Shown here one piece after another: positions 2-57,380 of a stretch of DNA of 64,000 nucleotides; position 1 is the first letter of the stretch, and each line of letters starts with the position of its first letter. Source of the DNA: Muribaculaceae bacterium (lineage in GTDB: Bacteria; Bacteroidota; Bacteroidia; Bacteroidales; Muribaculaceae). The translations under genes and the position numbers were made by a program. A model generated the notes under the pieces. That model was not told the DNA's origin. It worked only from the letters and a program-made list of their open reading frames with translations, and made no database searches. The stretch covers positions 16,162 through 80,161 of the forward strand of contig JAFVCX010000137.1 in the NCBI GenBank assembly GCA_017478855.1. The letters are read 5' to 3'.

Positions 2-613
2 GACCATTATCCCGTGAGGGGCATTGACGTGAGCAACCACAATGGTGAGGTGCAGTGGGACTTGGTGGCCGAACAGGGTTATCGGTTTGTATATTTGAAG
101 GCCTCTGAAGGAGCCACACACATCGATGCCCGATTCCGCCAAAATGCCCAAAAGGCTGCCGCTGCCGGGCTGAAGGTGGGAGCGTATCACTTTTTCAGAA
201 AAAACCGTGATGGCGAGGCGCAGGCCAGCAACATGCTGGCGGCCACTCACGGTGTGGCACTCGACTTGCCGCTCGTGGTGGATGTGGAAGACTGGGAAAA
301 CGACCACTGGCAAGATGAGGCCGAAGTGCGCGCACGCTTGCGCACGATGGTGAGCAACCTCATCAGGCAAGGCCGGCGAGTGATGATTTACACCAACGGC
401 GACGGCTACTCTAAGTTTTATCAACCCAATTTCCCGCAGTTGGACTTGTGGCTGTGCTCATTCAATAGCCCCGACAGCTTGCGCCTCACGCATGGACACA
501 CCTTGCAGCAATACAGCCATTGGGGCGAGGTGGAGGGAATAGAGGGTGATGTGGATCTCGACCTCTTTGTGGGAAGCGAGAAAGAATGGAAAAAATGGCT
601 CGACAAGCGTTGA
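2..613 (+). CDS. Glycoside hydrolase family 25 lysozyme/muramidase; 5' end probably lies outside the window
   Basis: The frame is open to the window edge (..DHYPVRGIDVS). GH25-like motifs are present: GIDVSNHNGEVQW, FVYLKASEG, GAYHFF, LPLVVDVED. Confidence 0.8.
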   Translation, partial: DHYPVRGIDVSNHNGEVQWDLVAEQGYRFVYLKASEGATHIDARFRQNAQKAAAAGLKVGAYHFFRKNRDGEAQASNMLAATHGVALDLPLVVDVEDWENDHWQDEAEVRARLRTMVSNLIRQGRRVMIYTNGDGYSKFYQPNFPQLDLWLCSFNSPDSLRLTHGHTLQQYSHWGEVEGIEGDVDLDLFVGSEKEWKKWLDKR

Positions 614-620
614 TACACTT

Positions 621-1232
621 ATGAGAACACGATTATTCCTTGCCCTGTGTTGTGTGATGTGCGCAGTCACGTCGGTTCGCGCGGCAGTCGTCACGTGGAG
701 CCGCTATAACTTGTCGTTTGAAGTGCCCGATGGCGGCGTGGTGACCTATAACAGCAACACGCGGTTTGAAGTGCAGTGGGATGAAATGGTCATGACCGTG
801 CAACTCTATGCAAAAGATAAGACCACTGAAAAGGAAATCACCACTAATCTCGACCGCAAGGCACTGGGCTTCAATATGTATGACACCAAACACGGCAAAA
901 TCAAGGTCAAAGGTTTCAAAGGGCTTATCATTGACGGCACGATGCCCGACGGCACGCGAGCCATCATTGCCGACCTCATCAGCAAGAAGCAAAACCTCAT
1001 TGTGGAGGTGACGATTAATTACCTGTTGGGCAACCGCGAAATGGTGGACGACATGATTAAGTCTTTTGCCGAAAACAACAATCAGCAGCCCAACCGCGAA
1101 AAACACAAACAAAAAGTGCAGACACCTGAAGCCGCACGACAGCAAGAGCTGCAGCGCAAGCAACAGGAACAACAAAAGCAACAAGAAGAACAGCGGCGTC
1201 GCGCTCACTCGGGTCGCCTTTATGATGCCTGA
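621..1232 (+). CDS. Hypothetical exported protein with a Q/E/R-rich C-terminal tail
   Basis: An internal ATG at 621 gives the signal-like N-terminus MRTRLFLALCCVMCAVTSVRA. The C-terminus QQELQRKQQEQQKQQEEQRRR looks like a low-complexity coiled coil. No family was recognised. Confidence 0.5.
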   Translation: MRTRLFLALCCVMCAVTSVRAAVVTWSRYNLSFEVPDGGVVTYNSNTRFEVQWDEMVMTVQLYAKDKTTEKEITTNLDRKALGFNMYDTKHGKIKVKGFKGLIIDGTMPDGTRAIIADLISKKQNLIVEVTINYLLGNREMVDDMIKSFAENNNQQPNREKHKQKVQTPEAARQQELQRKQQEQQKQQEEQRRRAHSGRLYDA

Positions 1233-1251: not shown

Positions 1252-2484
1252 ATGAAGAAAGTCAAGTTATTACCACTCCTTTTTGCGTGCGCCATGACGG
1301 CCACCCTTGCCATAGCGCAAAACCAGCAGCCTCACATGCTGACGATGCCCCTCATCTTTGAGCATCAGCAAGTGATGGAGGATTCTGCGTTCACGGCTCC
1401 ATTGCCCTCGGCATCATCACCTTATTTCCTTGATGCCGGCGACGCATGGTTGCAAAAAGCTCAGGAAGAAAGCCGCCGCCACCAGATGCTGCGCTATCGC
1501 ACAATGATCAGTCACCCCGAAGTGGTGGCTTTCAATAGCCGCACCCTGCCCGAGCCGCCAGCCGAATATGCACTTGCCGCCGACCCCAAGCAAGGCATGC
1601 TCACCATCGCCGCCCCCCAAGTGGTTGAGCCGGCTGAGGCTCCCATCGAAACACCGCCGGTGAAGATACACGACTGGCTGCATCTCTTCAACGGTTCCAT
1701 TCATTTCACGCAGGCTTATATCAGCGACAACTGGTATCAGGGCGGTGAAAATAACCTGAACATCTTGGGTGACATCAAGTGGGAGTTTAACCTGAACCAG
1801 ACCAAACATCCTAATTGGTTGTTCAACAACATGATGCAATATAAATTGGGCATCACGACGGCTCATGCCGACACCTTGCGCAACTATAACATCAACGAAG
1901 ACAACTTCTTGTTTACCTCGCAACTGGGCTACAAGGCCATTAAAAACTGGTATTATAGTGCCATGCTGCAATTCAAAACGCAGTTTTTCAATAACTACAA
2001 GAGCAACAGCCGCGACATGACGGCCGCCTTTCTGTCGCCCGGTGAATTGAACTTGGGTCTTGGTATGACTTATAATTATAAGAATGCCGACCAGAGCCGC
2101 ACACTCACGGTGGCCATTGCGCCGCTGTCCTATAATATGAAGATGTGTCGCGACACGCACCATCTTAATCCTGTGAACTTTGGTATTGACGCCGGCCACC
2201 ACACCAAGCACACCTTTGGTAGCAATGTGGAGGTGAAATGGAACTGGAAAATCACTCCCAGCATCTTCTGGTCGTCGCGATTCTACACGTTCACCAACTA
2301 TCAGTATGTGCAAGGCGATTGGGAAAACACATTCGATTTCGCTATCTCGCGGCACCTGAACACTAAAATCTTTACCCACTTGCGCTACGACAAGTCACAT
2401 CCGCGCGATGTTGATTGGAAATATTGGCAATTCAAAGAGATTTTGAGTTTCGGTATTGTGTACCGCTTTGCCACCAGCGAATAA
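1252..2484 (+). CDS. DUF3078-like outer-membrane beta-barrel protein
   Basis: Has a signal peptide (MKKVKLLPLLFACAMTATLAIAQ). The DNWYQGGENNLNILGDIKWEFN block and alternating aromatic beta-strand pattern match my recollection of DUF3078. Ends in an aromatic-rich strand (FGIVYRF). Confidence 0.6.
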   Translation: MKKVKLLPLLFACAMTATLAIAQNQQPHMLTMPLIFEHQQVMEDSAFTAPLPSASSPYFLDAGDAWLQKAQEESRRHQMLRYRTMISHPEVVAFNSRTLPEPPAEYALAADPKQGMLTIAAPQVVEPAEAPIETPPVKIHDWLHLFNGSIHFTQAYISDNWYQGGENNLNILGDIKWEFNLNQTKHPNWLFNNMMQYKLGITTAHADTLRNYNINEDNFLFTSQLGYKAIKNWYYSAMLQFKTQFFNNYKSNSRDMTAAFLSPGELNLGLGMTYNYKNADQSRTLTVAIAPLSYNMKMCRDTHHLNPVNFGIDAGHHTKHTFGSNVEVKWNWKITPSIFWSSRFYTFTNYQYVQGDWENTFDFAISRHLNTKIFTHLRYDKSHPRDVDWKYWQFKEILSFGIVYRFATSE

Positions 2485-3087
2485 ATGACGTGTAACAAGA
2501 CTCTCCGAGTGCCCACGCTTTGTGTGCTTGCCCTCATGACCACCATGATGGCATGGGCCGGCGTGCCGCAGCAATCACGCTTGTTGCCCGGACTTGACGA
2601 GGACTCGATGCGCGTGCGATTGAGCCAGCTCGACTTGCAGCCCATTGAGGGGATTTGGTATTACCAAAAAGAAAAAATGACACTGGGCATCGAGCGCAAT
2701 CCCACCGGTGATGAGGGTGACTACCGCATCGTGCTGCTTGATAGCGAAGACCTTGACCTCATGCCGGGCATGGTGGTGGGCTATCTGAACCGCAGTGTGA
2801 CTGCCACCAAATGGCAACTGACGCTTTATAGCGAGCGCGACCGACTGACGCTTTCGCACCCCATGGAGTGTGTGGCCACCTATCATTCGGGTGAGGGTAC
2901 CCTCACCTTCAGGCCTCCGCATTGGAAAGTGCGTGTGCGCATGAACCTCACGCGGTTTTTGCCCACGATATTTCATGCCGTGAGTGTGATGCCCGAAAAA
3001 CAGGAGGAGTCTTTGCCCATAGGCTTCAAAAAGATATATCCGGCTGAGGGCGACTCAGGAATGTTTAACGAAATACGCTACCTGTGA
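2485..3087 (+). CDS. Hypothetical exported protein
   Basis: The ATG directly abuts the preceding stop codon. The N-terminus is hydrophobic (TLCVLALMTTMMAWA). No recognisable motifs. Confidence 0.45.
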   Translation: MTCNKTLRVPTLCVLALMTTMMAWAGVPQQSRLLPGLDEDSMRVRLSQLDLQPIEGIWYYQKEKMTLGIERNPTGDEGDYRIVLLDSEDLDLMPGMVVGYLNRSVTATKWQLTLYSERDRLTLSHPMECVATYHSGEGTLTFRPPHWKVRVRMNLTRFLPTIFHAVSVMPEKQEESLPIGFKKIYPAEGDSGMFNEIRYL

Positions 3088-3584
3088 TGAGGAAACGCCG
3101 ACTGACATTGCTGCTGATAGCAACGACACTTGTGACGCTCATGCTCACAGCTCGCACACGCACCACCCAGCGCAGCTTGCAGGCTTCGCAAATGCAAATG
3201 GAACGCATCGTTACACAAGCCGGCGACACGACCTCGATGGCCGACGCGCTCACCGTGAACCCCGATGGAGTGGAGCTGCGCGGCTTTATGAAACGCGCCA
3301 GCGACCTGCGCGAGTCGTTTCTCATCACCAGCCGGCTGCCTCACCGTGTGAGTGCCGTGCGCCTGCTGCTGCGCTACACCACGCTCAATCAGGAGCTGAT
3401 AACCGAGCGCAAAGTCACAGTGCCGGTGACGCTCAATCCGGGCGAAACGCGTCGCGTGTGGATTTCCTCGTTCGACCGAGCGCGTGCCTACTACTTCTAT
3501 GCCGGCAGCAAGCCGCGCAAGGTGGCCTCTCCGTTCAAGGTGGCGTTCTTGCTTGTGGGCTATGATGTGCCGGTGGGCTATTAA
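3087..3584 (+). CDS. Hypothetical exported protein
   Basis: The ATG overlaps the upstream stop (TGATG). The N-terminus is hydrophobic (RLTLLLIATTLVTLMLTA). No recognisable motifs. Confidence 0.45.
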   Translation: MRKRRLTLLLIATTLVTLMLTARTRTTQRSLQASQMQMERIVTQAGDTTSMADALTVNPDGVELRGFMKRASDLRESFLITSRLPHRVSAVRLLLRYTTLNQELITERKVTVPVTLNPGETRRVWISSFDRARAYYFYAGSKPRKVASPFKVAFLLVGYDVPVGY

Positions 3585-3635
3585 ACTTTTAAGGACGGCA
3601 AATGTCTAAAAACACAACTAAAAGCGAGCTAAAAA

Positions 3636-4391
3636 ATGAAGACAATTACCAAACATTGCGCCATTGCGGTGTCATTGCTCTTGACCTTTGCCTTGCAGGC
3701 TCGAGCTGTGAACTTCAGCAATGAGCGGCTGAACTATGAAATCGTGTATCACTGGGGCATGATTTGGAAGCATGCCGGCGACGCGTCGCTCTCAATCAAA
3801 AAGACGGGCACGGGCTATCAAGCCCGCCTCACGGGCAGCACGCGCTCTTGGGCCGACAAAGTGTTTCCCGTGCGCGACACGCTCAAATGCTCCATGAACG
3901 CGCGCTTGCAGCCGCTGCGCTATGAAAAGCTCACGCATGAGAAAAATTATTACGCCCGCGACCTCGTGGAGTTTTCCCATAACTACTCACACACCTCGGC
4001 CACGTGCACACGCTACCGCACCGATAAGCCCACCCAAGTGGTCAATCTTTCGGCAAAATGCCAAGCCTACGACATGGTGAGCGTGTTCTACATGCTGCGC
4101 AACCTCGATTATGACGAATTGAGCCGCAATAAGCGAGTGACCACCGTCATCTTTTCCGGGAAACAAAAGGAGTATCTCACCATTACTTACAAAGGGCGTG
4201 AGAACATCAAGATGCGCAACGGCACCCAGCGCGAGGCCTATCACATCACGTTCAAGTTCACGCAGGAGGCGGGCAAGAAATCGAGCGACGACATCAACAC
4301 ATGGATGTCGACCGACGCGGCACGCATTCCGCTGCTGCTGGTGGGAAATCTACCCGTGGGGCAAGTGAAGTGCTATTATAAGGAAAGTTAA
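3636..4391 (+). CDS. DUF3108-like exported protein
   Basis: Has a signal peptide (AIAVSLLLTFALQARA). The block ERLNYEIVYHWGMIWKHAGDASL resembles the DUF3108 family. Confidence 0.55.
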   Translation: MKTITKHCAIAVSLLLTFALQARAVNFSNERLNYEIVYHWGMIWKHAGDASLSIKKTGTGYQARLTGSTRSWADKVFPVRDTLKCSMNARLQPLRYEKLTHEKNYYARDLVEFSHNYSHTSATCTRYRTDKPTQVVNLSAKCQAYDMVSVFYMLRNLDYDELSRNKRVTTVIFSGKQKEYLTITYKGRENIKMRNGTQREAYHITFKFTQEAGKKSSDDINTWMSTDAARIPLLLVGNLPVGQVKCYYKES

Positions 4392-7032: not shown

Positions 7033-7800
7033 TCAAAAGATGGTGTAGGGATAGGCAATGTCCCATAACCACAAGGCATGACCGGGCATTGATGTGCCGG
7101 CGTTGCAGCGGTTGCGGCTCTCCACAATGCGACAGAAGTCGCTCACAGTGATTTTGTGCCTACCCACTTCCACGAGTGTGCCCACCACCGCCCGCACCAT
7201 ATTGCGCAAAAAGCGGTTGGCCGTGATGGTAAATACCCATTGCTCGCCCTCGCGCTGCCATGCCGCATGGGTCACAAGGCAGTTGTTGTGTTTCACATCG
7301 GTGTGCAGCTTGCTGAAGGAGGTGAAGTCGTGAAAACCCATCAGATGGGTTGCGGCCTCGTTCATTAGGCTGAAGTCAAGGTCGGGGTGGCACTGCCAGC
7401 TCAACGGATAGAGGAAAGGTGACTTTTCGCTGTGTGCAAAATACTTATAGGTGCGGCTGCAAGCGTCAAAGCGCGCATGGGCGTGAGCCGCCACGGGAAA
7501 GATGCTGTGAATGGCTATGTCGCGCCCCACGAGGCCGTTGAGTTTGTGCCGCAACAAATCGGGCTGGGGCAGGGGCGAGGCCACGTCGAAGTGCGCCAGC
7601 ATGGTGCGGGCGTTCACGCCGGTGTCGGTGCGTCCGGCTCCTGTGAGAGCGGTGGGCGAGCGCAGCACAATGCCCAAAGCCTGCTCAAGGGTTTCTTGCA
7701 CGCTGTTGTCGTGCGGCTGAATTTGCCAGCCGTGGAAAGGCAGCCCCCGATAGCTCAGGCGCATGAAATAGCGATATTTCGTTCCAGCGTCAATCATCAT
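7033..7800 (-). CDS. truA: tRNA pseudouridine(38-40) synthase TruA
   Basis: Contains YRYFMRLSYRGLPFHGWQIQ, GAGRTDTGVNA (catalytic Asp motif) and FLRNMVRAVVGTL. Start chosen at MMIDAG. Confidence 0.85.
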   Translation of the reverse strand: MMIDAGTKYRYFMRLSYRGLPFHGWQIQPHDNSVQETLEQALGIVLRSPTALTGAGRTDTGVNARTMLAHFDVASPLPQPDLLRHKLNGLVGRDIAIHSIFPVAAHAHARFDACSRTYKYFAHSEKSPFLYPLSWQCHPDLDFSLMNEAATHLMGFHDFTSFSKLHTDVKHNNCLVTHAAWQREGEQWVFTITANRFLRNMVRAVVGTLVEVGRHKITVSDFCRIVESRNRCNAGTSMPGHALWLWDIAYPYTIF

Positions 7801-7851
7801 GCAAAAGTACAAAAAAAACACCATTTCGCTTGAAAAGTGCCCGAAAAAGCG

Positions 7852-7859
7852 TATCTTTG
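7852..7859 (+). promoter_or_regulatory. Candidate -7 promoter box (TATCTTTG)
   Basis: Matches TAnnTTTG, 63 nt upstream of the ATG at 7923. Confidence 0.4.
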
Positions 7860-7922: not shown

Positions 7923-10307
7923 ATGAAACACTTTTACTCCTTTGTGCTGATGTGCCTCGTAGCCGTCACACTTCATGCCGAAGCGATTAGCGAAAGTGCT
8001 GCACGCGCTATTGCAGGACATCAGCTTCGCGGCGATGCTGTTGTTGAGGTGTCGCTCAGCTCGGCCCGCAAGGCGCAAGCTGTTGGCGCAACGCAAGTCG
8101 CTACGCCGGCTTACTATGTATTTAACGCCGAAAAGGCCGGTGACGGTTTCGTCATCGTTTCGGGCGACGACCGTGTGGCTCCCATCTTGGGTTATAGCGA
8201 CAACGGCACGTTTGATCCCAATAATGTGCCCCCCGCCATGCAGGCCATGCTCGACGCTTATGCCGAGCAAATCGCCGCGCTGAACGACGGTGCCACCGCC
8301 GCGCAAAACTTGACGGGCAAAGCGGCCATTAAGCCTATGGTGACCAGTCGTTGGAACCAAAGCGCTCCCTTGAATGAATCGCTGCCCATGATTGGCGACA
8401 AATATCCCGTGACGGGCTGTGTGGCCACTGCTATGGCTCAGCTCATGTATTATCACAAGTGGCCGAAGAACCCCACTGAGAGTATTCCCGCCTATAAATT
8501 CTATTCTTCCACTCAGAAGGATACGATTGCCGCCGCCGAGCTTCCCTCAATCACGTTTGACTGGGAGAATATGCAGGATGTGTACATGGTGGACGTAACC
8601 GGCACGGTTGCCACTAAAGCAGTGTCTGATTTGATGCGCTATTGCGGCCAATCGGTGGAAATGGTGTACGGCACCAGTTCTTCGAGCGCTTCGACCTCAT
8701 GGGTGCCCCGCTCGCTCACCGACTACTTTGGCTATGCCACTTCGCAATATGTGCAGCGCATCTGCTATACGCAGGCCGAGTGGGACAACTTGGTGTATGA
8801 CGAATTGAAAGCCGGCCGCCCCATTCTTTATCGTGGCGACAAGAACCCCGGCGGCCACGCCTTCTTGTGCGATGGCTATGATGGTAATGGCTTGTTCCAC
8901 TTCAACTGGGGCTGGGCAGGCAAGAGCGACGGTTACTTTGTGCTGAGCGTGCTCAATCCTGACGACCAAGGCACCGGCAGCACCGCAGGCCCTTACGGAT
9001 ACATCTTCGGCCAGTCGATGATTATCGGTGTGCAACCGGGCGACGCTGTGGGCGATGGCTTGCGCATGACCAGCACAGACCTGAAGAACCCCGGCACGAC
9101 TTCCCTCTCGCGTTCCAGCAAAGCCGAAGATTTTAGCCTCACACTGACCAGCCGTTTCACCAACTATAACAGCATCGTGGAAACTTTCGACTTTGGCTGG
9201 GGTGTTTTCGACAAAGACAATGAGTTGATTGCTACACCATGGTGGAGTTATTCTTCGTCGGGCTTGCGTCCTCGTTACGGTTATAACAAAACGGTGGAAT
9301 TGAACTTTGGCGCCTCTCTTCCTAACGGCACCTACCGCTTGTTGCCCATCAGCCGCGTGCGTGGCACCGAAGACTGGTTGCTGTGCTATGGAGCTGAAGT
9401 GAACTATGTGGAAGTGACCATCGACGGCCTTGCCGGCTCTGTGACGAGCCATGGCACTGCGGCTGTGGCCGATTATAAGGTGAACGACATCGCCTTTGAG
9501 GGCACCATGAACGCTAACAAGAAAGTGAAGGTCACTCTGAACCTCACCAACGAAGGCAACACAGAGTATGACATGCTCTATGTGTATGTGGACGGAACCA
9601 AGACCTCTAACGCGGTGATTGATATCCTCCCCGGTGAAACAGGCACAGCCGAGCTGAACTTCGTGCCCACCACCGCGGGCGAAAAGACGGTGACCTTCTC
9701 GCTCAATAGTAACGGCAGCAACCCCATTGCCACCCGCACCATCACCATCAACAGCATGCCCACTGTGACCTTGACCAATACCGCTCTTGTGACCAACACG
9801 GTGAACACCAATGAGGTGCATGCCGACAAGATTATTGCTGCCGTCACGTTTACCAACGAGTCTTCTGTGGATTATGATGAGGACGTGCTCCTGAAAGTGT
9901 ATCGTGTGACTTATAGCAGCAAAAACAGCGGCACACTGGCGCAAACCCTCTCACAACCGCTCAAACTGGCCGCCGGCGAAACGAAGATTGTGGTCTTTGA
10001 GGTGGGTAATCTCATCTCGGGCTACAAATATTTCGGATGGCCTTACTACTTTAGCAACGGAGGTGAAGTGAAAGGCAACAAATCGGTGCCCACGCGCCTC
10101 GTCATCATCCCCGACGAGCCTGAGTACAAGCAGGGCGACGTGAATGGCGACGGCAATGTGGATGTGGACGATGTGAACATTCTCATCAACGTTATTCTGG
10201 GTCGCGACGATGCCGATAAATATGGCACACGCGCCGACGTGAATGGCGATAGCGGTGTGGATGTGAGCGACGTGAACACGCTCATCAACCTCGTTTTGGG
10301 CAAATGA
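7923..10307 (+). CDS. Peptidase C10 (streptopain/SpeB-like cysteine protease) with Ig/CARDB-like repeats and a C-terminal dockerin-like module
   Basis: Has a signal peptide. Contains WNQSAP, the catalytic Cys block TGCVATAMAQLMYYHKWP and the catalytic His block GGHAFLCDGYDGNGLFHFNWGWAG. The C-terminus carries a duplicated DVNGDG..VDV.DVN..IN.(I/V)LG module. Confidence 0.85.
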   Translation: MKHFYSFVLMCLVAVTLHAEAISESAARAIAGHQLRGDAVVEVSLSSARKAQAVGATQVATPAYYVFNAEKAGDGFVIVSGDDRVAPILGYSDNGTFDPNNVPPAMQAMLDAYAEQIAALNDGATAAQNLTGKAAIKPMVTSRWNQSAPLNESLPMIGDKYPVTGCVATAMAQLMYYHKWPKNPTESIPAYKFYSSTQKDTIAAAELPSITFDWENMQDVYMVDVTGTVATKAVSDLMRYCGQSVEMVYGTSSSSASTSWVPRSLTDYFGYATSQYVQRICYTQAEWDNLVYDELKAGRPILYRGDKNPGGHAFLCDGYDGNGLFHFNWGWAGKSDGYFVLSVLNPDDQGTGSTAGPYGYIFGQSMIIGVQPGDAVGDGLRMTSTDLKNPGTTSLSRSSKAEDFSLTLTSRFTNYNSIVETFDFGWGVFDKDNELIATPWWSYSSSGLRPRYGYNKTVELNFGASLPNGTYRLLPISRVRGTEDWLLCYGAEVNYVEVTIDGLAGSVTSHGTAAVADYKVNDIAFEGTMNANKKVKVTLNLTNEGNTEYDMLYVYVDGTKTSNAVIDILPGETGTAELNFVPTTAGEKTVTFSLNSNGSNPIATRTITINSMPTVTLTNTALVTNTVNTNEVHADKIIAAVTFTNESSVDYDEDVLLKVYRVTYSSKNSGTLAQTLSQPLKLAAGETKIVVFEVGNLISGYKYFGWPYYFSNGGEVKGNKSVPTRLVIIPDEPEYKQGDVNGDGNVDVDDVNILINVILGRDDADKYGTRADVNGDSGVDVSDVNTLINLVLGK
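10134..10304 (+). other. Type I dockerin-like module (two Ca-loop/helix repeats) at the C-terminus of the C10 peptidase
   Basis: Sequence is GDVNGDGNVDVDDVNILINVILGRDDADKYGTRADVNGDSGVDVSDVNTLINLVLGK. It has two EF-hand-like D-x-N-x-D-G loops, each followed by a short helix. Confidence 0.75.
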
Positions 10308-10337
10308 TGTAGCGACCATCCCGACAAGCTCTAATGG

Positions 10338-10372
10338 GTGGGGGCGCAATGATTTGCGCTCCCACTATTTTA
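10338..10372 (+). terminator. Rho-independent terminator candidate
   Basis: A 12-bp stem GTGGGGGCGCAA / TTGCGCTCCCAC (one G-U pair), loop TGAT, followed by TATTTTATT. Confidence 0.6.
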
Positions 10373-10391: not shown

Positions 10392-10399
10392 TAACTTTG
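10392..10399 (+). promoter_or_regulatory. Candidate -7 promoter box (TAACTTTG)
   Basis: Matches TAnnTTTG. It ends only 9 nt before the ATG at 10409, implying a very short leader. Confidence 0.4.
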
Positions 10400-10408
10400 C
10401 AGCCTAAT

Positions 10409-12376
10409 ATGAAAATGCGTTTCATCACATATTTGATGATAGCCGTCAGCTTGATGGGGGCGGCCAAGCAGAAGCAAAAAATCGAGCCGTCATACGCTTG
10501 GCAGCTTGCCGAGCCATTGGGCTTGCGCTTGGAGTCGACCATCGACACGCTGTTTGAAAACTACCACCGCATGGCTATTCCGTGGCTGCCCAGCAAGGCA
10601 TGGGCCACCACGGGCAACTATGGCGCACCCGGGCAGAACCAAGTATTTTTTGAGCGCAAGCCAATGAGTGACTTTTGGTTTGAAGACGCCTTGCAGCCGT
10701 GGTTGCACACCACCGCCACGCAGCGATTCTACAACACGCGTGTGCCCATGACCCTGATGGGACACACCACCGGTGGCGACAAATATAGCAACCAAGACCG
10801 CACGCAAGTGACTTTCTCGGGCAATGCGGGCAAACGATTGGCAGTGGGAGCCATGCTTGACTATGTCTATAGCAAGGGCACCTATGAATATCAAGCCGAT
10901 AAAGATTTCACTTGGGGAATGTCGACCTCCTACACGGGCGACCGCTATGAACTTCAGGCTCTTTTTACCCATTACGACTATACCACCAAAGAGAGCGGTG
11001 GCATTACCGATGACCGCTATATTACCGATCCCGCCGAAGTGCAAGGCGGAGTGACGCGCGTGGACAACAAGAGCATTCCCACACGGTTGACCAGCACGCA
11101 CAACAACGTGAAGGGAACCCAACTGATGATGAACCATCGCTATAAAGTGGGATTCTATCGCTATGAGCGCGACTCGATAACCGACACGATTGTGGGGCGC
11201 ACCTATGTGCCGGTGACCAGTTTCATTTGGACACTTGACTATAAGGACAACCGCCACAAATTTTTGAACCAAAGTGCCAGTGAAGACACTTCATTCTTCT
11301 CGCACACCTACCTGAATTTGGGTGGTACCGACGAAACCACCAAGTGGTGGCGGCTACGCAACACGGTGGGTATCTCGATGCTGGAAGGTTTTAACCGCTG
11401 GATGAAGATGGGGTTTGCGGTGTTTGGCACGCATGAAATGCGGCGATTCACGCAGGTGACCGATACGGTGACGGGTGGCCAAGTGACGCTTCTTGATGGG
11501 CTTGATGTGGCACCGGCCACAGTGTCGGCACGGCACACTCAGCATTTGGTGTGGCTGGGAGGGCAGCTCACCAAGATGACGGGCAGCACCCTGCGCTATG
11601 CGGCCACGGCAAAATTTGGTATGGCTGGTGATGTGGTGGGCGACGTGGACATCAGCGGCGACATCACGGCCCGCGCCCGGCTGCTGGGCGACACGGTGAG
11701 CCTGCGCGGATATGGCTATTTTAAGAACCAAGAGGTGCCCTACCTGCTGAAAAATTTTGTTTCCAACCACTTCGTGTGGCAAAACAGCTTCAGCAAAGAG
11801 AAACGGTTGAGATTGGGCGGCGAACTGAATGTGCCCCACACGCTCACCAACGTGAATGTAGGCTATGAAACACTGAAGAATTTTGTGTACTTTGATGCCG
11901 ATGCTCTACCCGCCCAGCACAGCGGTGCCATTCATGTGTTTCAGGCTACGTTGCGGCAAGGACTGCATCTCAAAGCCTTTGGCTGGGACAATGCCGTGAC
12001 CTACCAGACGAGCAGCAACAAAGACGTGCTGGCTCTGCCGGCAGTGAGCCTCTTCAGCAACATGTATGTGAAATTTCTCATCGCGCAGGTGCTGCATGTG
12101 CAGTTGGGTGTGGATTGCAATTATTACTCAAAATATTACGCGCCGAGCTATAACCCGGCTCTCATGGCGTTTCATGTGCAAAACGAGCAAAAGTGCGGTA
12201 ATTTTGCCCTCTTTGACGCTTATGCCAACTTCAAGCTGAAAAAAGCACGCTTCTTTGTGCTTTATAGTCACGCTAACGCAAAACTGTTTGGGGGGAACAA
12301 CTATTTTGCCCTGCCGCATTATCCGCTTAACCCTGCTCGCTTTCAAGTGGGTGTGAGTGTGGATTTCGCGCACTAA
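10409..12376 (+). CDS. Large outer-membrane beta-barrel protein (Bacteroidetes 'putative porin' type)
   Basis: Has a signal-like N-terminus (MKMRFITYLMIAVSLMGAA). It is about 650 aa rich in alternating aromatic/Gly strands. Ends with ARFQVGVSVDFAH. The family call is from memory only. Confidence 0.5.
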   Translation: MKMRFITYLMIAVSLMGAAKQKQKIEPSYAWQLAEPLGLRLESTIDTLFENYHRMAIPWLPSKAWATTGNYGAPGQNQVFFERKPMSDFWFEDALQPWLHTTATQRFYNTRVPMTLMGHTTGGDKYSNQDRTQVTFSGNAGKRLAVGAMLDYVYSKGTYEYQADKDFTWGMSTSYTGDRYELQALFTHYDYTTKESGGITDDRYITDPAEVQGGVTRVDNKSIPTRLTSTHNNVKGTQLMMNHRYKVGFYRYERDSITDTIVGRTYVPVTSFIWTLDYKDNRHKFLNQSASEDTSFFSHTYLNLGGTDETTKWWRLRNTVGISMLEGFNRWMKMGFAVFGTHEMRRFTQVTDTVTGGQVTLLDGLDVAPATVSARHTQHLVWLGGQLTKMTGSTLRYAATAKFGMAGDVVGDVDISGDITARARLLGDTVSLRGYGYFKNQEVPYLLKNFVSNHFVWQNSFSKEKRLRLGGELNVPHTLTNVNVGYETLKNFVYFDADALPAQHSGAIHVFQATLRQGLHLKAFGWDNAVTYQTSSNKDVLALPAVSLFSNMYVKFLIAQVLHVQLGVDCNYYSKYYAPSYNPALMAFHVQNEQKCGNFALFDAYANFKLKKARFFVLYSHANAKLFGGNNYFALPHYPLNPARFQVGVSVDFAH

Positions 12377-12383
12377 AACACAC

Positions 12384-13217
12384 ATGCTTATGCTGCGTCC
12401 TTCGCGATATAACCGACGTAATGGGCAAGCGGTGCTCTATGTGGCATTGCTGCTGACGGTCGTTGCTGGCATGTATGCTTTGAGCCGCTGCGACCGGCCT
12501 GTGGATGCCGTGACCGATGCGGCCAGCGGCGGTGACACGATTGATGTGGCCATAGAGTATGCCCCAATCACTTATTATGCCTATGATGACACTTTGGGAG
12601 GGTATGATTATGACTTGCTGCGCAAGGTGAGCGAGTATGCGCACCGAGCCATGAAATTTCACCCCATAGTGACGTTGCAACGTGGCATCGAAGGGCTTGC
12701 CAACGGCACCTACGATGTGCTGGTGGCTCAATATCCTATGACGGCCAGCGACCGCGAGCGGTTCTTGTTCACCGAGCCGGTGTATATCGACAAACAGGTG
12801 CTTGTGCAGCGCCGCCCGGCCATTGTGCGCTCGCAGTTTGACCTCGCCGGCGACACAGTTTGGGTGGTGAAAAGCTCGCCCATGGCAGCCCGCATCGAGG
12901 GGCTGAGCCGTGAACTGGGCGACACGATTCATGTGATGGCCGACCACTCCTATGGAGCCGAGCAACTGGTGATGCTGGTGGCCGGAGGAGAAGTGCGCTA
13001 CGCGGTGGTGAACCGTGCGTTGGCCACAGGCATGGCAAAGAAGTTGCCACAAGTGGACGTGAGTGTTGACATTAGCCTATCGCAATTTCAAGCATGGGTG
13101 CTGGCTCGCGACAACCAAGTGTTGTGCGACAGCCTGAACAGCTGGCTCCGACATGTGAAAAACGATGCGAAGGCCATGAGTGAATTGCAGCGACGTTATT
13201 TTGCTAAATCTGATTGA
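12384..13217 (+). CDS. Membrane-anchored periplasmic solute-binding (SBP family 3 / MltF N-terminal-like) domain protein
   Basis: Has an N-terminal TM segment (AVLYVALLLTVVAGMYAL). Blocks IDVAIEYAPITYY..GYDYDLLRKV and DVLVAQYPMTASDRERFLFTEPVYIDKQVLV are typical of the SBP_bac_3 fold. Confidence 0.6.
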   Translation: MLMLRPSRYNRRNGQAVLYVALLLTVVAGMYALSRCDRPVDAVTDAASGGDTIDVAIEYAPITYYAYDDTLGGYDYDLLRKVSEYAHRAMKFHPIVTLQRGIEGLANGTYDVLVAQYPMTASDRERFLFTEPVYIDKQVLVQRRPAIVRSQFDLAGDTVWVVKSSPMAARIEGLSRELGDTIHVMADHSYGAEQLVMLVAGGEVRYAVVNRALATGMAKKLPQVDVSVDISLSQFQAWVLARDNQVLCDSLNSWLRHVKNDAKAMSELQRRYFAKSD

Positions 13218-13219
13218 CG

Positions 13220-43702: not shown

Positions 43703-44179
43703 CTATGCTTTGTCAACGAGAAGTGCCACCGCAAGGGCGCTTATGCCCTCTTCGCGGCCGGTGAAGCCCAGTCGCTCGGTGGTGGTGGCCTTGACAGAAA
43801 CTTGGGCCACATCGCAGGTCATGACCTGCGCCAGCGTTTGCTGCATGGCCGGGATGTGCGGGTTGAGCTTGGGACGCTCGGCGCAAATGGTGATATCGCA
43901 ATTACCCAACTCATACCCTTTTTCCCGCACCAGCCGCATGGTTTCTCGCAGCAATAGGCGGCTGTCGATGCCTTTATATTTCGGGTCGGTGTCAGGAAAA
44001 TGATAACCGATGTCGCGCAGGCTGGCAGCTCCCAGCAGGGCGTCGCACAGCGCGTGAATGGCCACATCGGCATCGCTGTGTCCCAGCAGCCCCATGCTGT
44101 GGTCGAGCTTCACCCCGCACAGCCACAAATCGCGTCCGGGCACAAGCCTGTGCACATCATATCCCTGACCTATTCTCAT
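43703..44179 (-). CDS. ispF: 2-C-methyl-D-erythritol 2,4-cyclodiphosphate synthase
   Basis: Contains MRIGQGYDVHRL, GHSDADVAIHALCDALLGA and ATTTERLGFTGR. Confidence 0.92.
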   Translation of the reverse strand: MRIGQGYDVHRLVPGRDLWLCGVKLDHSMGLLGHSDADVAIHALCDALLGAASLRDIGYHFPDTDPKYKGIDSRLLLRETMRLVREKGYELGNCDITICAERPKLNPHIPAMQQTLAQVMTCDVAQVSVKATTTERLGFTGREEGISALAVALLVDKA

Positions 44180-45372
44180 CGGCCAAAGAGGCTCTTAATG
44201 CCGTCCATGTCAAATGAAAGTGTGAATCGCAGCGTTTGGTCGAGTGGCGAGTTTTGAGCTGTGGCAATCATATAGGCCGCATCAAGGCGAATCACATTGA
44301 GCGAGAAACCGGCACCCAGTCCAAAGTACTGGCGGTCGCCGTTATATTTGCTTTCGTAGTAATAGCCGCCGCGCAAGAAGAACTGCTGGTTGTAGGCATA
44401 CTCGGCACCCAAAGAATAGGTGATGCGTTTCAGGGGATCATCGCTGAACGAGTCGAACATACCCGAAATCGACGACTTGTCTTTCCAGTCCTGCTCGGCT
44501 TGCCCATAGGCTTCGGCATTGGGGGTGCCATCTTCATTCAGATAGTCGTCGGCACGGGGCTTGGCCGGCACCATCAGTTTATTGGCGTCGAGCGAGAGGG
44601 TGAGGTTGTGGTAGTCGGCCAACGGGAAGGTAAAGGCCGTGCCCACACGCAGATTGGCCGGCAAGAAAGCCGGATTATTGCCACCGTTATAAGAGATTTT
44701 GCTGCCGATGTTGCTCAGGTTAAATCCCAGCGACCACTGGCACTCGTTGCGACCAATCACGGGGAATGTGGTGTAGTAGCCCGAAATGTCGGCGGCAAAT
44801 GCCGATGCGCCCTTCGACTGGTCATTGTCGTTATAGTCGCCCCCATAACCCAAGTCGCTATAGATGTAGCGCAGAGCCACACCCATCGAGAATTTCTCAC
44901 TCAATTTGCGCGAGTATCCGAGGTCTATCGCCATTTCAAAGGGATTGATGGTGCCCATCACATCGTTGCCCCCCGAAGTCATTTGAATCTCGCCCAGCGA
45001 GAAATAGCGCAACGAGGCACTCACGGCCTGATTGTCGTTGCTGCCAATCTTCATATAGCCGGCCAAGTTGGCCAGATAGATGTCGTTCACAATCTTGCGC
45101 AGCCACGGGGTATAACTCAGCGACACGCCGGCCGCGCTATAGGCGAAGGCATATTTCGACGGATTCCAAAACTGAGAGTTGGCATCGGGGTCGGTGGCCG
45201 CGCCCAAGTCGCCCATCGAGGCGCCTCGCGCATCGGGTATGATGCTCAGTGAGTTCACACCTGTGGTGATGGGGTTAAACTCGGTGTTCTTAATGTCGTC
45301 ATCGGCCCATGCCGCCACACTCATAGTGGCCAGCGCGAGCGCCCATATAAATGATAGAAAGCGATTTTTCAT
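44176..45372 (-). CDS. porV: Type IX secretion system outer-membrane channel/shuttle protein PorV (LptO)-like
   Basis: Has a signal peptide. The block SLSIIPDARGASMGDLGAATDPDANSQFWNPSKYAF matches my recollection of the PorV signature. It is a FadL-like barrel of about 400 aa. Confidence 0.7.
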   Translation of the reverse strand: MKNRFLSFIWALALATMSVAAWADDDIKNTEFNPITTGVNSLSIIPDARGASMGDLGAATDPDANSQFWNPSKYAFAYSAAGVSLSYTPWLRKIVNDIYLANLAGYMKIGSNDNQAVSASLRYFSLGEIQMTSGGNDVMGTINPFEMAIDLGYSRKLSEKFSMGVALRYIYSDLGYGGDYNDNDQSKGASAFAADISGYYTTFPVIGRNECQWSLGFNLSNIGSKISYNGGNNPAFLPANLRVGTAFTFPLADYHNLTLSLDANKLMVPAKPRADDYLNEDGTPNAEAYGQAEQDWKDKSSISGMFDSFSDDPLKRITYSLGAEYAYNQQFFLRGGYYYESKYNGDRQYFGLGAGFSLNVIRLDAAYMIATAQNSPLDQTLRFTLSFDMDGIKSLFGR

Positions 45373-54207: not shown

Positions 54208-54283
54208 CTTGAATATTTGTTCTGTTTTAGCCAGCAAAGATACAACTTTTGTGCCGTTTTGTTGGCAAATGAGAATATTTTTG

Positions 54284-54291
54284 TACTTTTG
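54284..54291 (+). promoter_or_regulatory. Candidate -7 promoter box (TACTTTTG)
   Basis: Matches TAnnTTTG, 49 nt upstream of the ATG at 54340. Confidence 0.45.
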
Positions 54292-54339
54292 CTAAAATCA
54301 AACATCTTATTAAGAATTATTTATCAAAAATTTGTTGCT

Positions 54340-55086
54340 ATGAAGAAACAATTACTCCTTCTCTCGGCCGCTCTGCTGAGCATCAGCGCATGGAGCCAAG
54401 CCACCGTCACTCTGCCCTATGAGGCCAACCTGAACAATGCCGATGAAGCGGCACAATGGACGATCGTCGACGCTAACAACGACGGTAAAACATGGACTTA
54501 TGGCAGCGGTGAATTTGCCTATACATCATTCAACAGCGCCAACGACTATCTGTTTACACCCGCCTTTGCCACTGTGGCAGGCAGCCACGCGCTCACCTAC
54601 ACGGTCAAAGGATATAACGGACGTTACAGCGACGCTTATGAGGTGATACTGGCCAACTCGACCGACGTGGCCAACGCTACTGTGCTGCAAGTGATTGAAA
54701 CCACCGCTCAAAATGGTGTGGGCGCGGCAATGTATAAAGAGAAAACTGTTGATTTTGAAGTGCCCGCGCGCGGCACCTACTACATTGGCTACCACGACGT
54801 GACCACCGACGCTTGGGGACTGTATATCGGTTCGACCAAGATTGTTTCGAATGTGGCCACCGGCCTTCGCAACATTGAAGCTCCTCGCGCAGCCTTCAAC
54901 CGCTCGTCGCAAGCCATTGAGGTTCCCGGTAAAGCTCGCGTCACTGTGGCCACCCTCGGCGGCATCATCGTGGCCGGCTCAACGGTGGAACAAGCCCTTA
55001 GCGTGGCTCATCTTCCCAATGGCGCTTATGTGGCACTGGTGAAGCGTGCCGACGGTGGCGTGGACCGCATTAAGTTCATCAAGTAA
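54340..55086 (+). CDS. Small T9SS cargo: cleaved-adhesin / choice-of-anchor-J-like beta-sandwich domain + T9SS C-terminal sorting domain
   Basis: Has a signal peptide (MKKQLLLLSAALLSISAWSQ) and the QWTIVDANNDGKTWTYG motif. The C-terminus VTVATLGGIIVAGS..LSVAHLPNGAYVALVKRADGGVDRIKFIK is CTD-like. Confidence 0.7.
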   Translation: MKKQLLLLSAALLSISAWSQATVTLPYEANLNNADEAAQWTIVDANNDGKTWTYGSGEFAYTSFNSANDYLFTPAFATVAGSHALTYTVKGYNGRYSDAYEVILANSTDVANATVLQVIETTAQNGVGAAMYKEKTVDFEVPARGTYYIGYHDVTTDAWGLYIGSTKIVSNVATGLRNIEAPRAAFNRSSQAIEVPGKARVTVATLGGIIVAGSTVEQALSVAHLPNGAYVALVKRADGGVDRIKFIK

Positions 55087-55109: not shown

Positions 55110-57380
55110 ATGAAGAAAACTTTGTTAACCTCATGCGCCATCGTTGTGGCAATCCTTGCTACCGCGGGATTGCCACAAATGGTGGTACGCAACAAGCAGC
55201 AGGCACCCCAAGTGCCACAACCGGAGGTGACGCTTGCGAGCAAAACGCATCGTGCCGCGCCGGCGCACGTCAGGCTCACTGCCGACCAACCGTTGCAAGC
55301 CGCGTTCAGCGTGCAAGGAGCCGAATCGCAGAAAGCCGTTTGGCAAGTAAACTTCGACGAAGGTGCCGCGGGCTGGACTTTGGGACGCGATGCCAACGAT
55401 TACTTTGGCTGGGAACTCAAAAAATCGAGCGGCACCCAAGCCTTTGGCCTCATCGACGAGAACGACGTGCAGTCGCTCTTCATAGAAGGGCCTTATCAAA
55501 TCTACAGAAGAAGCATTGCCCGCGCCACCGGTCCCGCCATTGACGTGCCTCAAAATGGCGTGCTGCATGCCTACATCGGTTATAGCCAGAACATGAACAC
55601 CTATGCTGTGCTCTCGATTGAAGCATCGACCGACGGTTTTGAGAACAGTGTGGAATTGTGGAACAGCACTCTTGAAACGGGCGAAACGGCATGGCGATGG
55701 CACAAGATTGAGGTGGGCCTCAATGATTACGCCGGCAAGAAAGTGGCTTTTCGCTTCACTTACGGACCGGGCACCAGCGATAATGTGTTCCGCACGGGTG
55801 GCTATATGGCCGATTATTACATTGACGGCCTGCAGGTGACCGGTGTGAGCAGTGTGGATCACATTGATGTAGCCACGGGTGAGCCGGTGAACTTTGTGGA
55901 TCTCTCTACCGGCGATGTGACACAATGGGAATGGCAGTTTGAGGGCGGCACACCCGCAACCTCGACCGAGGCCGCGCCCACCGTCGTCTATAAAAATGAT
56001 GGAGCCTACAGCGTGAGCCTGACTGTTACCGACGCACAGGGCACGACAAGCAGCGTGACGCGTGAGCGGTTTGTGAACGTGACCGGCACGGCCCCTGTGG
56101 CTCGCATCATGCCTCCGGCCACCTTCCGCTACGACGACACCCATCTGCCCATGGTGTGTCCCCTCGTGCCTGTGCAGTATCGTGATGCATCGAGTAGTTT
56201 CCCCACTCAGTGGCAATGGAATTTCACCGGCACCACGCCGGCCGCATCCGCACAAGAGAATCCTCTTGTAGCCTATGATTTCATGCACGAGCAAAGCGTG
56301 ACCCTGCAAGTGGCCAACGAACATGGTTCGAGCAGTGACGCACTGGCGGTATCGGCCGAATATGAAGGTTACATCAGCAATTTGCTCAGCAGCGACTATC
56401 CCATCACCCGCAGCCTCGATGGCGAGGGCACCTTCCCGGGCAGCAATCGCATGCGCATTAATGCCTATGCCGAGCGTTTCTCGGCTCCGTCGCGCCCCAT
56501 CTTGGTGTATGGCGCGCTGGTGTTTTTTGAAACCGCCACGGCCGAGGCTCTTACCGACCAGATAGCCAATGTGGGTGTGCATCTGTGCAAGAGCGAAGAC
56601 GGCAAACCCGGCAAGCAGCTCGACTCGATGTGGTGGCGCGTGTTTGAGCTGGCCACCAGCACCAGCACCACCCTGCGTGGCACGCTGTTTGAGTTCACTC
56701 CGCAAGTGGTGGATGAGGAATTCTTTATTATGGTGGACGGTATTCCGGAGTGGAACGACTCGTGCAATGTGTCGTTTGCCATGGCCAGCCTGCGCGACCA
56801 CGACAACACGGCTTACATCAAGTTGCGCGACCAGTGGCGACCCGTGACCGGCTTCTTCGACCGCGACAAGAGCCAAACCTCGTTCTACATTATGCCGCTC
56901 ATCGCGCACTCGGTCATCACATTCTTGCCCACCAGTACACAAGAGGTGCGTGTGCCCGCACAAGGAGGAAGCATAGACCAACAATTATTTGCCCTCTTTG
57001 GCTATAATACGCCCGAAGTTGACGCCGACTGGTGTCGCATCACCAGCACGCCCAATGAGCTGACGCTCGACACACTGAAAATAGAGTGTGACGCGCTGCC
57101 GGCAGGCACTTCCAGCCGTGTGGCCACCATTACCGTGACCGACCGCATCAATGCCTCGACGGCCACGCTGCGCATCGTGCAGAGTGCCGGTCTTGCGGGC
57201 GACGTGAATGGCGATGGTGAGGTGGATGTGAACGATGTGAACATTCTCATCAACATCATTTTGGGCACCGATGACGCTGAAAAATATGATGGCCGTGCCG
57301 ACGTGAACGGTAGTGGCGGCATCGATGTGAGTGACGTAAATGCTCTGCTCAACATTATCTTGGGCAAGGCCGACAATTAG
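55110..57380 (+). CDS. Secreted multidomain protein: N-terminal adhesin/MAM-like domain, PKD-like repeats, BACON-like domain, C-terminal dockerin-like module
   Basis: The PKD-like block is VNFVDLSTGDVTQWEWQFEGGTPATS..YSVSLTVTDAQGTTSS. The BACON-like block is DADWCRITSTPNELTLDTLKIECDALPAGTSSRVATITVTD. The dockerin-like module is at the end. Only 23 nt separate it from the upstream gene. Confidence 0.75.
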   Translation: MKKTLLTSCAIVVAILATAGLPQMVVRNKQQAPQVPQPEVTLASKTHRAAPAHVRLTADQPLQAAFSVQGAESQKAVWQVNFDEGAAGWTLGRDANDYFGWELKKSSGTQAFGLIDENDVQSLFIEGPYQIYRRSIARATGPAIDVPQNGVLHAYIGYSQNMNTYAVLSIEASTDGFENSVELWNSTLETGETAWRWHKIEVGLNDYAGKKVAFRFTYGPGTSDNVFRTGGYMADYYIDGLQVTGVSSVDHIDVATGEPVNFVDLSTGDVTQWEWQFEGGTPATSTEAAPTVVYKNDGAYSVSLTVTDAQGTTSSVTRERFVNVTGTAPVARIMPPATFRYDDTHLPMVCPLVPVQYRDASSSFPTQWQWNFTGTTPAASAQENPLVAYDFMHEQSVTLQVANEHGSSSDALAVSAEYEGYISNLLSSDYPITRSLDGEGTFPGSNRMRINAYAERFSAPSRPILVYGALVFFETATAEALTDQIANVGVHLCKSEDGKPGKQLDSMWWRVFELATSTSTTLRGTLFEFTPQVVDEEFFIMVDGIPEWNDSCNVSFAMASLRDHDNTAYIKLRDQWRPVTGFFDRDKSQTSFYIMPLIAHSVITFLPTSTQEVRVPAQGGSIDQQLFALFGYNTPEVDADWCRITSTPNELTLDTLKIECDALPAGTSSRVATITVTDRINASTATLRIVQSAGLAGDVNGDGEVDVNDVNILINIILGTDDAEKYDGRADVNGSGGIDVSDVNALLNIILGKADN
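57198..57377 (+). other. Type I dockerin-like module
   Basis: Sequence is GDVNGDGEVDVNDVNILINIILGTDDAEKYDGRADVNGSGGIDVSDVNALLNIILGKADN. Confidence 0.75.

Follow-up and report, generated by a model that had tools for sequence, protein, structure and literature searches.

The window analyzed here, a 64-kb stretch of DNA from a gut or rumen Bacteroidales bacterium, contains at 7923..10307 (+) a complete gene (stop codon included) for a 794-aa streptopain-like C10 cysteine protease precursor that ends in a C-terminal dockerin. It is the longest ORF at this position and aligns colinearly with 26 homologues. Its neighbors are truA (7033..7824, − strand) and a Porin_10 gene (10397..12376), and no staphostatin-like inhibitor gene is adjacent. 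A candidate Bacteroidetes-type −7 promoter box, TATCTTTG (consensus TAnnTTTG), lies at 7851..7858 (+), about 65 bp upstream of the ATG, and a sigma-70 scan also flags 7830-7857. A terminator-like hairpin (13-bp stem, 8 G-C pairs) followed by a T-rich tract at 10337..10366 (+) suggests that the gene is monocistronic.

The window holds two more dockerin-ending proteins: a PKD + BACON + Dockerin_1 protein at 55110..57380 (+) and a 642-aa protein with an N-terminal part of unknown family at 57511..59439 (−). Their dockerins are 72% and 65% identical, respectively, to that of the C10 protein. The 642-aa protein is unrelated to the ∼650-aa dockerin proteins next to C10 genes in relatives, which are CotH-dockerin proteins. 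PorV, the type IX secretion system (T9SS) outer-membrane shuttle protein, is encoded at 44176..45372 (−) (PF19572, E 9.9e-69), showing that this genome has a T9SS. A secreted Big_2/beta-propeller protein at 62175..63998 (−), cut N-terminally by the window end, carries a short T9SS-CTD-like tail (...VYTIDGRLVKTGDTSVAGLPAGLYIAGGKKVVVR) that scores 39.5 bits with our own CTD HMM but is not scored by curated Pfam and NCBIfam models. A tRNA scan of the window found no tRNA genes.

Architecture of the C10 protease

The N-terminus, MKHFYSFVLMCLVAVTLHAEA|I, has an AxA cleavage site, and a reading of the sequence makes an SPI signal peptide plausible (7923..7985, aa 1-21, cleavage after AEA). This inference is consistent with low pLDDT for aa 1-20 and with the same pattern in homologues. 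Cys11 follows V-L-M inside the hydrophobic core and is not conserved in homologues, so we do not read it as a lipobox of the kind expected in Bfp/Btp-type C10 surface lipoproteins. An Inhibitor_I69 (SpeB-type) prodomain follows at 7977..8273 (aa 19-117; PF13734, E 1.3e-24), which would keep the zymogen latent.

The predicted catalytic domain spans 8352..9038 (aa 144-372) and matches Peptidase_C10 over the full length of the model (PF01640, aa 144-339, E 1.7e-62, 211.6 bits against a cut-off of 26, model positions 1-194 of 194). Cys166 (GCVATAMAQ block, codon 8418..8420) and His312 (GGHAF block, codon 8856..8858) are invariant in the 27 aligned sequences. Sequence searches of the PDB hit streptopain (1.3e-51) and interpain A (1.6e-41), and Foldseek matches the SpeB zymogen 1dki and prointerpain 3bb7, including the prodomain, at a TM of about 0.8.

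Three beta-sandwich modules occupy 9069..10103 in the AF2 model (aa 383-510, 518-610, and 617-727). The last two share a weak CARDB-like signature (E 0.017), Pfam Ig-like hits at aa 523-607 are below threshold, and many homologues carry CARDB in precomputed annotation.

The terminal module at 10134..10304 (aa 738-794) matches Dockerin_1 (PF00404, aa 738-791) at 34.0 bits against a gathering score of 22.9 (E 3.4e-8) and our own family HMM at 78 bits. It consists of two 22-residue loop-helix repeats (DVNGDGNVDVDD... and DVNGDSGVDVSD...) ending at the last residue, with the D/N residues of a type I dockerin at loop positions 1, 3, 5, 9, and 12 (D-V-N-G-D-G-N-V-D-V-D-D and D-V-N-G-D-S-G-V-D-V-S-D). 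Helices are predicted at aa 748-758, 764-771, and 781-791 with pLDDT of about 80-88. The NCBIfam GC-type dockerin model is not matched (10.7 against 29), as expected for a different subtype, and no C-terminal sorting domain (TIGR04183 or PF18962) was found, so the protein does not classify as a T9SS type A cargo.

These results confirm what a sequence-only reading had noticed, namely a C10 protease with its Cys and His blocks, an SPI signal without a lipobox, and a terminal dockerin-like module at the coordinates given above. The two Ig/CARDB-like repeats it described are also right, with one extra beta module in front. It correctly saw no inhibitor gene nearby, but we reject this absence as significant because the protein carries its own I69 prodomain, which that reading did not mention.

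Dockerins, C-terminal tails, and candidate cohesins in related genomes

The architecture is not unique. About 100 of the 120 best homologues share it, and a C10-dockerin protein attributed to a Prevotella-like rumen bacterium was pictured in 2016 (PMC6487960, Supporting Fig. 1S E), so it is less novel than the sequence-only reading assumed. A homologue search with the 62-aa dockerin alone returned only eight short fragments and gave no cargo survey.

In related Bacteroidales genomes, C10 paralogues end in either a dockerin or a T9SS sorting domain. Of 93 complete C10 ORFs in 79 related loci plus the window, 31-34 end in a dockerin and most of the rest end in T9SS-type tails. TIGR04183 confirms the longer tails at 37-55 bits (among them those of the paralogues at related loci L051, L053, L055, and L061), and at least 9 dockerin/CTD switches occur on the catalytic-domain tree. 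Since PorV is present in the window, we reject the idea that the dockerin replaces a lost T9SS.

Cohesin-like ORFs lie within 10 kb of the C10 gene in 9 of 21 dockerin-type C10 loci against 0 of 59 others (Fisher p 1.3e-6), although this statistic uses phylogenetically related loci and the cohesin profile was seeded from one of them. Operon-like orders include C10-dockerin > CotH-dockerin > cohesin in locus L007 and C10-dockerin > cohesin-CTD in L025, L023, and L032. Locus L023, from the cultured carrier Prevotella sp. tf2-5, has C10-dockerin, cohesin-CTD, and C10-dockerin genes in a row.

Most of these candidate cohesins are annotated as hypothetical and missed by Pfam, but Pfam Cohesin is matched in L010 (29.8 bits) and L023 (24.6 bits), profile comparison recovers the PDB entry 5n5p and other cohesins, and hhalign gives 98.3%. 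An AF2 model of the small cohesin protein gave cohesins as all top 20 Foldseek hits (TM up to 0.81). A profile of only the four small proteins against PDB sequences gave no hits, so the assignment of these four rests on hhalign and the predicted fold.

The small proteins consist only of a signal peptide, a cohesin, and a CTD-like tail. The tail in L023 matches Por_Secre_tail at 24.4 bits, but the short tails on most cohesin proteins, and on the window's Big_2/beta-propeller protein (a putative T9SS cargo), are not recognized by curated Pfam and NCBIfam T9SS models and, as a profile, relate to canonical CTDs at only 70% hhalign probability; we therefore call them CTD-like. The cohesins belong to a family of 2,435 clusters that includes multi-cohesin scaffoldins with up to eight cohesins, some with dockerins and CTD-like tails, and Pfam confirms three cohesin stretches plus a dockerin in two family members, P0170 and P0171.

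No cohesin-like ORF was found in the 64-kb window, even with a sensitive family profile, and the closest homologues (P0003, P0007, and P0009) are likewise stand-alone genes with no cohesin within 10 kb. Because the cohesin sits next to DUF3108 in L080, we compared the small unknown secreted ORFs upstream of the window's DUF3108 gene (546..1232, 2485..3087, and 3084..3584) with the cohesins and found no similarity. Exact look-ups of two genes near the window edges (59461..61563 and 1252..2484) found nothing on record. The cohesin partner in this genome is thus inferred.

Comparison with known systems

Streptopain (SpeB) and Prevotella intermedia interpain A (MEROPS family C10) share with this protein the prodomain, the papain-like catalytic domain, the Cys-His dyad, and the NWGW motif, but lack its roughly 420 extra C-terminal residues, the three beta-sandwich modules and dockerin. 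SpeB is a free secreted Gram-positive protein, and interpain-type enzymes end in a T9SS CTD. T9SS type A cargo proteases of the same family (PrtT and gingipain-type logic) carry their C-terminal address module in the same place, whereas the link to the T9SS proposed here would be indirect, through a cohesin. The rumen protein of PMC6487960 has the same domain combination and its dockerin was modeled as type I, but it was only listed and modeled; no partner, binding test, or link to T9SS was reported, and all cohesin-plus-dockerin contigs tested there were Firmicutes.

Cellulosome and amylosome systems of Clostridia and Ruminococcus share the type I dockerin signature with duplicated Ca-binding loops, the cohesin fold (predicted for the partner candidates), multi-cohesin scaffoldins, and the similarity of dockerins within a genome. 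Here, however, the host is a diderm, the cargos are a protease, CotH kinase-like proteins, BspA-type LRR proteins, and PKD/BACON proteins with few CAZymes, many candidate partners are single-cohesin adaptors, and anchoring is apparently by T9SS-CTD-like tails instead of SLH domains or sortase. The locus does not qualify as a cellulosome in the strict sense, as its cargo is a protease, the window has no scaffoldin, and the window's other dockerin proteins are not recognizable CAZymes. Non-cellulosomal cohesin-dockerin pairs (Clostridium perfringens GH84/GH33 complexes and Archaeoglobus fulgidus) likewise assemble non-cellulolytic proteins, and their cohesins are among the best structural matches of the small Bacteroidales cohesin (2jh2, 2vo8, and 2xdh), but they come from different phyla with different anchoring, and none is linked to T9SS or to C10 proteases.

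Proposed docking on the cell surface and its implications

We consider it somewhat more likely than not that the gene encodes a secreted, latent streptopain/interpain-type protease that is exported by the Sec pathway, held inactive by its I69 prodomain until cleavage, and plugged non-covalently, through a spacer of three beta-sandwich modules and a dockerin folded around two Ca2+ ions, into a cognate cohesin protein encoded elsewhere in the genome. In this view, the T9SS would export the cohesin, either a small signal-peptide/cohesin/CTD-like protein or a larger scaffoldin, and attach it to the cell surface, where the protease and the genome's other dockerin-tagged proteins would be displayed. 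The dockerin would thus act as an indirect substitute for the T9SS sorting domain that paralogous C10 proteases carry at the same position. The three dockerins in the window are 65-72% identical to one another despite unrelated cargos, but only 30-40% identical to those of other genomes, the pattern expected for a shared genome-specific partner.

The sequence data establish the architecture, the conserved catalytic residues, the presence of a T9SS, the dockerin/CTD alternation in paralogues, and, in relatives, the cohesin genes adjacent to dockerin-type C10 genes together with their cohesin fold, which is known from prediction. That this genome encodes such a cohesin, that the two modules bind with Ca2+, that the cohesin is a T9SS cargo, that the protease is active, and how it crosses the outer membrane, for which no route is known, are all inferred. 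No binding or localization data exist for any Bacteroidales dockerin. The evidence supports the central interpretation of the sequence-only reading, that a dockerin in place of a T9SS CTD or lipobox implies recruitment onto a scaffold or the cell surface.

Among alternatives, the best surviving, though doubtful, is an orphan dockerin in a genome without cohesins, where the module would be a Ca2+-binding stabilizer or bind a non-cohesin ligand such as a glycan or LPS, or cohesins of other rumen species such as Ruminococcus scaffoldins. The absence of cohesins in the window and beside the closest homologues fits this view, Pfam-based surveys repeatedly find dockerins without cohesins in Bacteroidales, and lateral transfer of dockerins from Firmicutes has been proposed. 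However, native cohesins that Pfam misses sit beside dockerin-type C10 genes in the nine related loci, so surveys based on PF00963 under-count them, and the near-identity of the three dockerins in the window argues for a specific shared partner in this genome.

An unlikely but not excluded possibility is piggyback export, in which the dockerin binds a small cohesin-CTD adaptor in the periplasm and the folded complex is carried through the T9SS translocon, making the dockerin an indirect secretion signal as well as an anchor. The protease has an SPI signal but neither CTD nor lipobox, its paralogues carry a CTD at the same position, the adaptors have no other parts than those described above, and L010 has proteins with both a dockerin and a CTD. 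This remains pure inference: no precedent for T9SS hitchhiking turned up in the papers searched, and the short tails are not confirmed as T9SS signals. In its broadest and equally tentative form, gut and rumen Bacteroidales may run a two-part T9SS address system, in which a small adaptor or a multi-cohesin scaffoldin ending in a CTD both ferries and tethers dockerin-bearing cargo, a protease-, kinase-, and adhesin-displaying counterpart of the cellulosome in diderm bacteria whose cohesins are largely invisible to current domain models. Retention in the periplasm or packing into outer-membrane vesicles, with no part for the dockerin in surface display, would fit an SPI signal without a recognized outer-membrane export tag but is very unlikely, as a zymogen C10 protease with long Ig-like spacers and a docking module is typical of extracellular proteins and its paralogues are T9SS cargos.

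If the pairing of these dockerins with the candidate cohesins is real, it would explain how abundant gut Bacteroidales display proteases and adhesin-like proteins without giving each its own T9SS signal. It would also extend the cohesin-dockerin principle to diderm bacteria with a new anchoring route, and would show that metagenomic counts of “cellulosomal” potential based on PF00963 miss a large cohesin family.

Architecture and genomic context of the C10 protease

The ORF at 7923..10307 on the + strand is the longest at that place and encodes 794 residues. Curated Pfam models gave three hits, namely Inhibitor_I69 (aa 19-117, E 1.3e-24), Peptidase_C10 (aa 144-339, E 1.7e-62, covering the whole model), and Dockerin_1 (aa 738-791, 34.0 bits against a gathering score of 22.9). 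The sequence-only reading had described a C10 cysteine protease terminated by a dockerin-like module instead of a T9SS CTD or lipobox, and this observation is confirmed, with the dockerin mapping to the position it had given (nt 10134..10304). The Cys block (Cys166) and the His block (His312) are invariant in an alignment with 26 homologues. PDB sequence searches hit streptopain (E 1.3e-51) and interpain A (E 1.6e-41), and an AlphaFold2 model (mean pLDDT 76.8) superposes on the SpeB zymogen and on prointerpain A, prodomain included, with TM about 0.8.

The model shows three beta-sandwich modules between the protease and the dockerin (aa 383-510, 518-610, and 617-727), of which the last two share a weak CARDB-like signature, while the first is unrelated to them. 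The dockerin has two complete Ca-binding loops (DVNGDGNVDVDD and DVNGDSGVDVSD), each followed by a confidently predicted helix. The N-terminus reads as an SPI signal with an AxA site, and the Cys inside it is neither in a lipobox context nor conserved. A Bacteroidetes-type -7 box (TATCTTTG, 7851-7858) and a strong hairpin with a T-rich tract (10337..10366) suggest a monocistronic gene. The Porin_10 + SBP_bac_3 gene pair downstream (10397..13217) is also found near the C10-dockerin gene of the database homologue P0009 (locus L085, 3239-6079), a partial synteny of unknown meaning.

This architecture is not an oddity of one gene. About 100 of the 120 best database homologues (39-46% identity, full length) carry Dockerin_1 in the precomputed annotation, and those that lack the annotation, such as P0004 and P0034, still align a dockerin; one homologue is named "C10 family peptidase [Muribaculaceae bacterium]". 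A scan of species-representative genomes found relatives in rumen and gut MAGs labelled Muribaculaceae, Prevotellaceae, and Bacteroidales, at no more than 43% identity. The combination is already present in the literature: Bensoussan et al. 2016 (PMC6487960) reported rumen Bacteroidetes dockerins and pictured a rumen C10-DOC protein, although they tested no Bacteroidetes dockerin for binding and all contigs with both a cohesin and a dockerin were Firmicutes. Later work states that the role of dockerins in rumen Bacteroidetes "is not defined yet" (PMC7480376), and Pfam-based surveys keep finding Bacteroidales dockerins without cohesins.

The window (53.5% G+C) holds two more dockerin-ending proteins, a PKD + BACON + Dockerin_1 protein (55110..57380, + strand) and a 642-aa protein with no recognisable N-terminal family (57511..59439, - strand). 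Their dockerins are 72% and 65% identical, respectively, to that of the protease, although the cargos are unrelated, whereas dockerins from other genomes are only 30-40% identical; this is the species-specific pattern seen where many dockerins serve one cohesin type. The N-terminus of the PKD + BACON protein (MKKTLLTSC...) looks like a lipobox (L-T-S-C), so that it could be both lipid-anchored and dockerin-tagged, and the ORF upstream of it (54217..55086) has only a faint Cleaved_Adhesin hit. The 642-aa protein lies directly downstream of a TonB-dependent receptor gene (59461..61563, - strand) and is unrelated to the CotH-dockerin proteins of relatives.

The window also encodes PorV, the T9SS shuttle protein (44176..45372, - strand, E 1e-68), with ispF-like and HAD-like neighbours and no porU beside it, and a protein with a short T9SS-CTD-like tail (62175..63998, - strand). 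The genome therefore has a T9SS, and the dockerin is not a substitute for a lost secretion system. No cohesin was found in any window ORF, either with Pfam or with a sensitive family profile.

Dockerins and T9SS-type tails at the C-terminus

Using HMMs built from the family alignment, we classified 93 C-terminally complete C10 ORFs in 79 related loci plus the window. Of these, 31-34 carry a dockerin, almost always as the last module, and most of the rest end in T9SS-type tails. Dockerin and T9SS sorting domain alternate at the same position. NCBIfam TIGR04183 confirms the longer tails of the Paludibacter, Barnesiella, Duncaniella, and Bacteroidales paralogues at 37-55 bits against a cut-off of 23. 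The shorter "Prevotella-type" tails (TGI...YDLQGRRV...KGIYIVNGKKVIVK) are not scored by the curated models and relate to the canonical tails only at 70% hhalign probability, aligning on the expected motifs with a 14-residue deletion; we therefore call them CTD-like. Such short tails (TGI...Y.L.G..V...GIYI.NGKKV.VK), seen on the window protein at 62175..63998 and also in the related loci L028, L035, L012, L025, and L010, are very common on secreted proteins, and because neither TIGR04183 nor PF18962 scores them, T9SS cargo counts based on those models are probably too low in these lineages.

On a rough NJ tree of the catalytic domains, at least nine dockerin/CTD switches are needed, and CTD is inferred as ancestral. 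The window protein lies in one large, uniformly dockerin-type clade with loci L001-L009. Repeated swaps argue that the two tags serve the same end.

Candidate cohesins in related genomes

In locus L010, a 557-aa protein next to a C10 protein scores as Pfam Cohesin (29.8 bits) plus Dockerin_1. An iterated search from its cohesin over all ORFs of the collected loci converged on 14 proteins, which fall into small proteins made of a signal peptide, a cohesin-like domain, and a CTD-like tail (L007, L008, L025, L023, and truncated-looking L002 and L006) and larger cohesin-CTD proteins (L003, L010, L032). These ORFs occur in 9 of 21 loci with a dockerin-type C10 gene and in 0 of 59 loci with other C10 genes (Fisher p 1.3e-6), although the loci are phylogenetically related and the profile was seeded from one of them.

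Gene orders look operon-like: C10-DOC > CotH-DOC > COH in L007; C10-DOC > COH-CTD in L025, L023, and L032; and in L080/L081 a C10-DOC gene, a giant Flg_new_2 protein, CotH-DOC, COH, DUF3108, and a 1148-aa Peptidase_C25 protein about 7 kb further on. In L080 (17308-20627), L081, and L082, this Peptidase_C25 protein of 1,027-1,148 aa, about 7 kb downstream of the small cohesin gene, has the size and family expected of the T9SS sortase PorU and is at most a candidate for it. A CotH kinase-like protein ending in a dockerin is a recurrent neighbour of C10-dockerin genes (L002, 6054-7988, - strand; L005, 12740-14689; L007, 12371-14389; L008, 1728-3719, - strand; L066, 134-2086; L080, 7999-9948), and in L002, L007, L008, and L080 it sits directly beside the small cohesin gene. 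In L080-L082 (L080, 10001-11439), the small cohesin gene lies directly upstream of a DUF3108 gene; the window also has a DUF3108 gene (3636..4391, within the compared region 3084..4391), but the ORFs upstream of it are not cohesin-like.

In L010, a cluster of four genes (6032-18802) forms a small cohesin-dockerin network, comprising LRR(BspA)-COH-DOC-COH-CTD, C10-...-DOC-COH-CTD (1,959 aa), SP-COH-MBGx2-COH-DOC, and COH-CTD, so that here dockerin and CTD occur on the same proteins. The tag swap is seen on the cohesin side too, as one member of the small-cohesin family (P0136, 309 aa) has its CTD-like tail replaced by a different C-terminal region that ends in a dockerin.

The cohesin assignment was validated independently in several ways. 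Pfam scores the L023 protein as Cohesin (24.6 bits) with a sub-threshold Por_Secre_tail (24.4 bits), but misses the small proteins of the closest relatives. The family profile hits cohesins in the PDB (5n5p at E 3e-5; 8 of the 12 hits are cohesins), and the four Pfam-negative proteins align to the Pfam-positive ones at 98.3% hhalign probability. An AlphaFold2 model of P0121, a database protein 98% identical to the L007 ORF, gives cohesins as all of the top 20 Foldseek PDB hits, with TM up to 0.81. NCBI names such a protein "hypothetical protein [Bacteroidales bacterium]".

An exhaustive profile search of 1.84 billion cluster representatives found 2,435 proteins at E <= 1e-3 and 548 at E <= 1e-10, some with up to eight cohesin-like stretches. 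Among the best 150, classified with our own HMMs, 115 are multi-cohesin proteins, of which 62 also have a dockerin and 37 have a CTD-like tail, and 34 are single-cohesin proteins, of which 15 have a CTD-like tail. Pfam confirms three cohesin stretches plus a dockerin in the family members P0170 and P0171, and one cohesin in P0182, but misses the others sampled. In the literature searched, we found no paper that links cohesins or dockerins to the T9SS in Bacteroidota.

Inferred mode of surface display

The protein is a Sec-exported zymogen, as read from its sequence, held inactive by its I69 prodomain. Its dockerin most likely binds a cognate cohesin encoded elsewhere in the genome, and by analogy with the relatives that cohesin carries a T9SS-type tail and would be exported and surface-anchored by the T9SS, so that the protease and the other dockerin proteins would be displayed non-covalently. 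The domain architecture, the presence of PorV, the alternation of C-terminal tags, and the cohesin-like genes of relatives come directly from the analysis, whereas proteolytic activity and dockerin-cohesin binding are inferred, and the presence of such a cohesin in this genome, the status of the short tails as T9SS signals, and the route of the protease across the outer membrane are uncertain. The closest homologues are also stand-alone genes.

Alternatively, the dockerin may be an orphan, acting as a Ca-binding stabiliser or binding a foreign cohesin or a non-cohesin ligand, which we regard as possible but less likely. More speculatively, piggyback export of the dockerin-cohesin complex through the T9SS is not excluded. 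A periplasmic or vesicle location is the least likely alternative.

The proposal of the sequence-only reading, that the dockerin recruits a degradative enzyme onto a scaffold or the cell surface, is thus supported in substance, on sequence and predicted structure alone. The gene itself belongs to an already populated and previously noticed architecture, and the key partner, if encoded in this genome, lies outside the window, but the finding makes a stated open question testable. The system to which it points would be cohesin-dockerin assembly in a diderm Bacteroidales, differing from those already described in that its cargos are proteases, CotH-like proteins, and adhesin-like proteins and its cohesins have T9SS-like tails.
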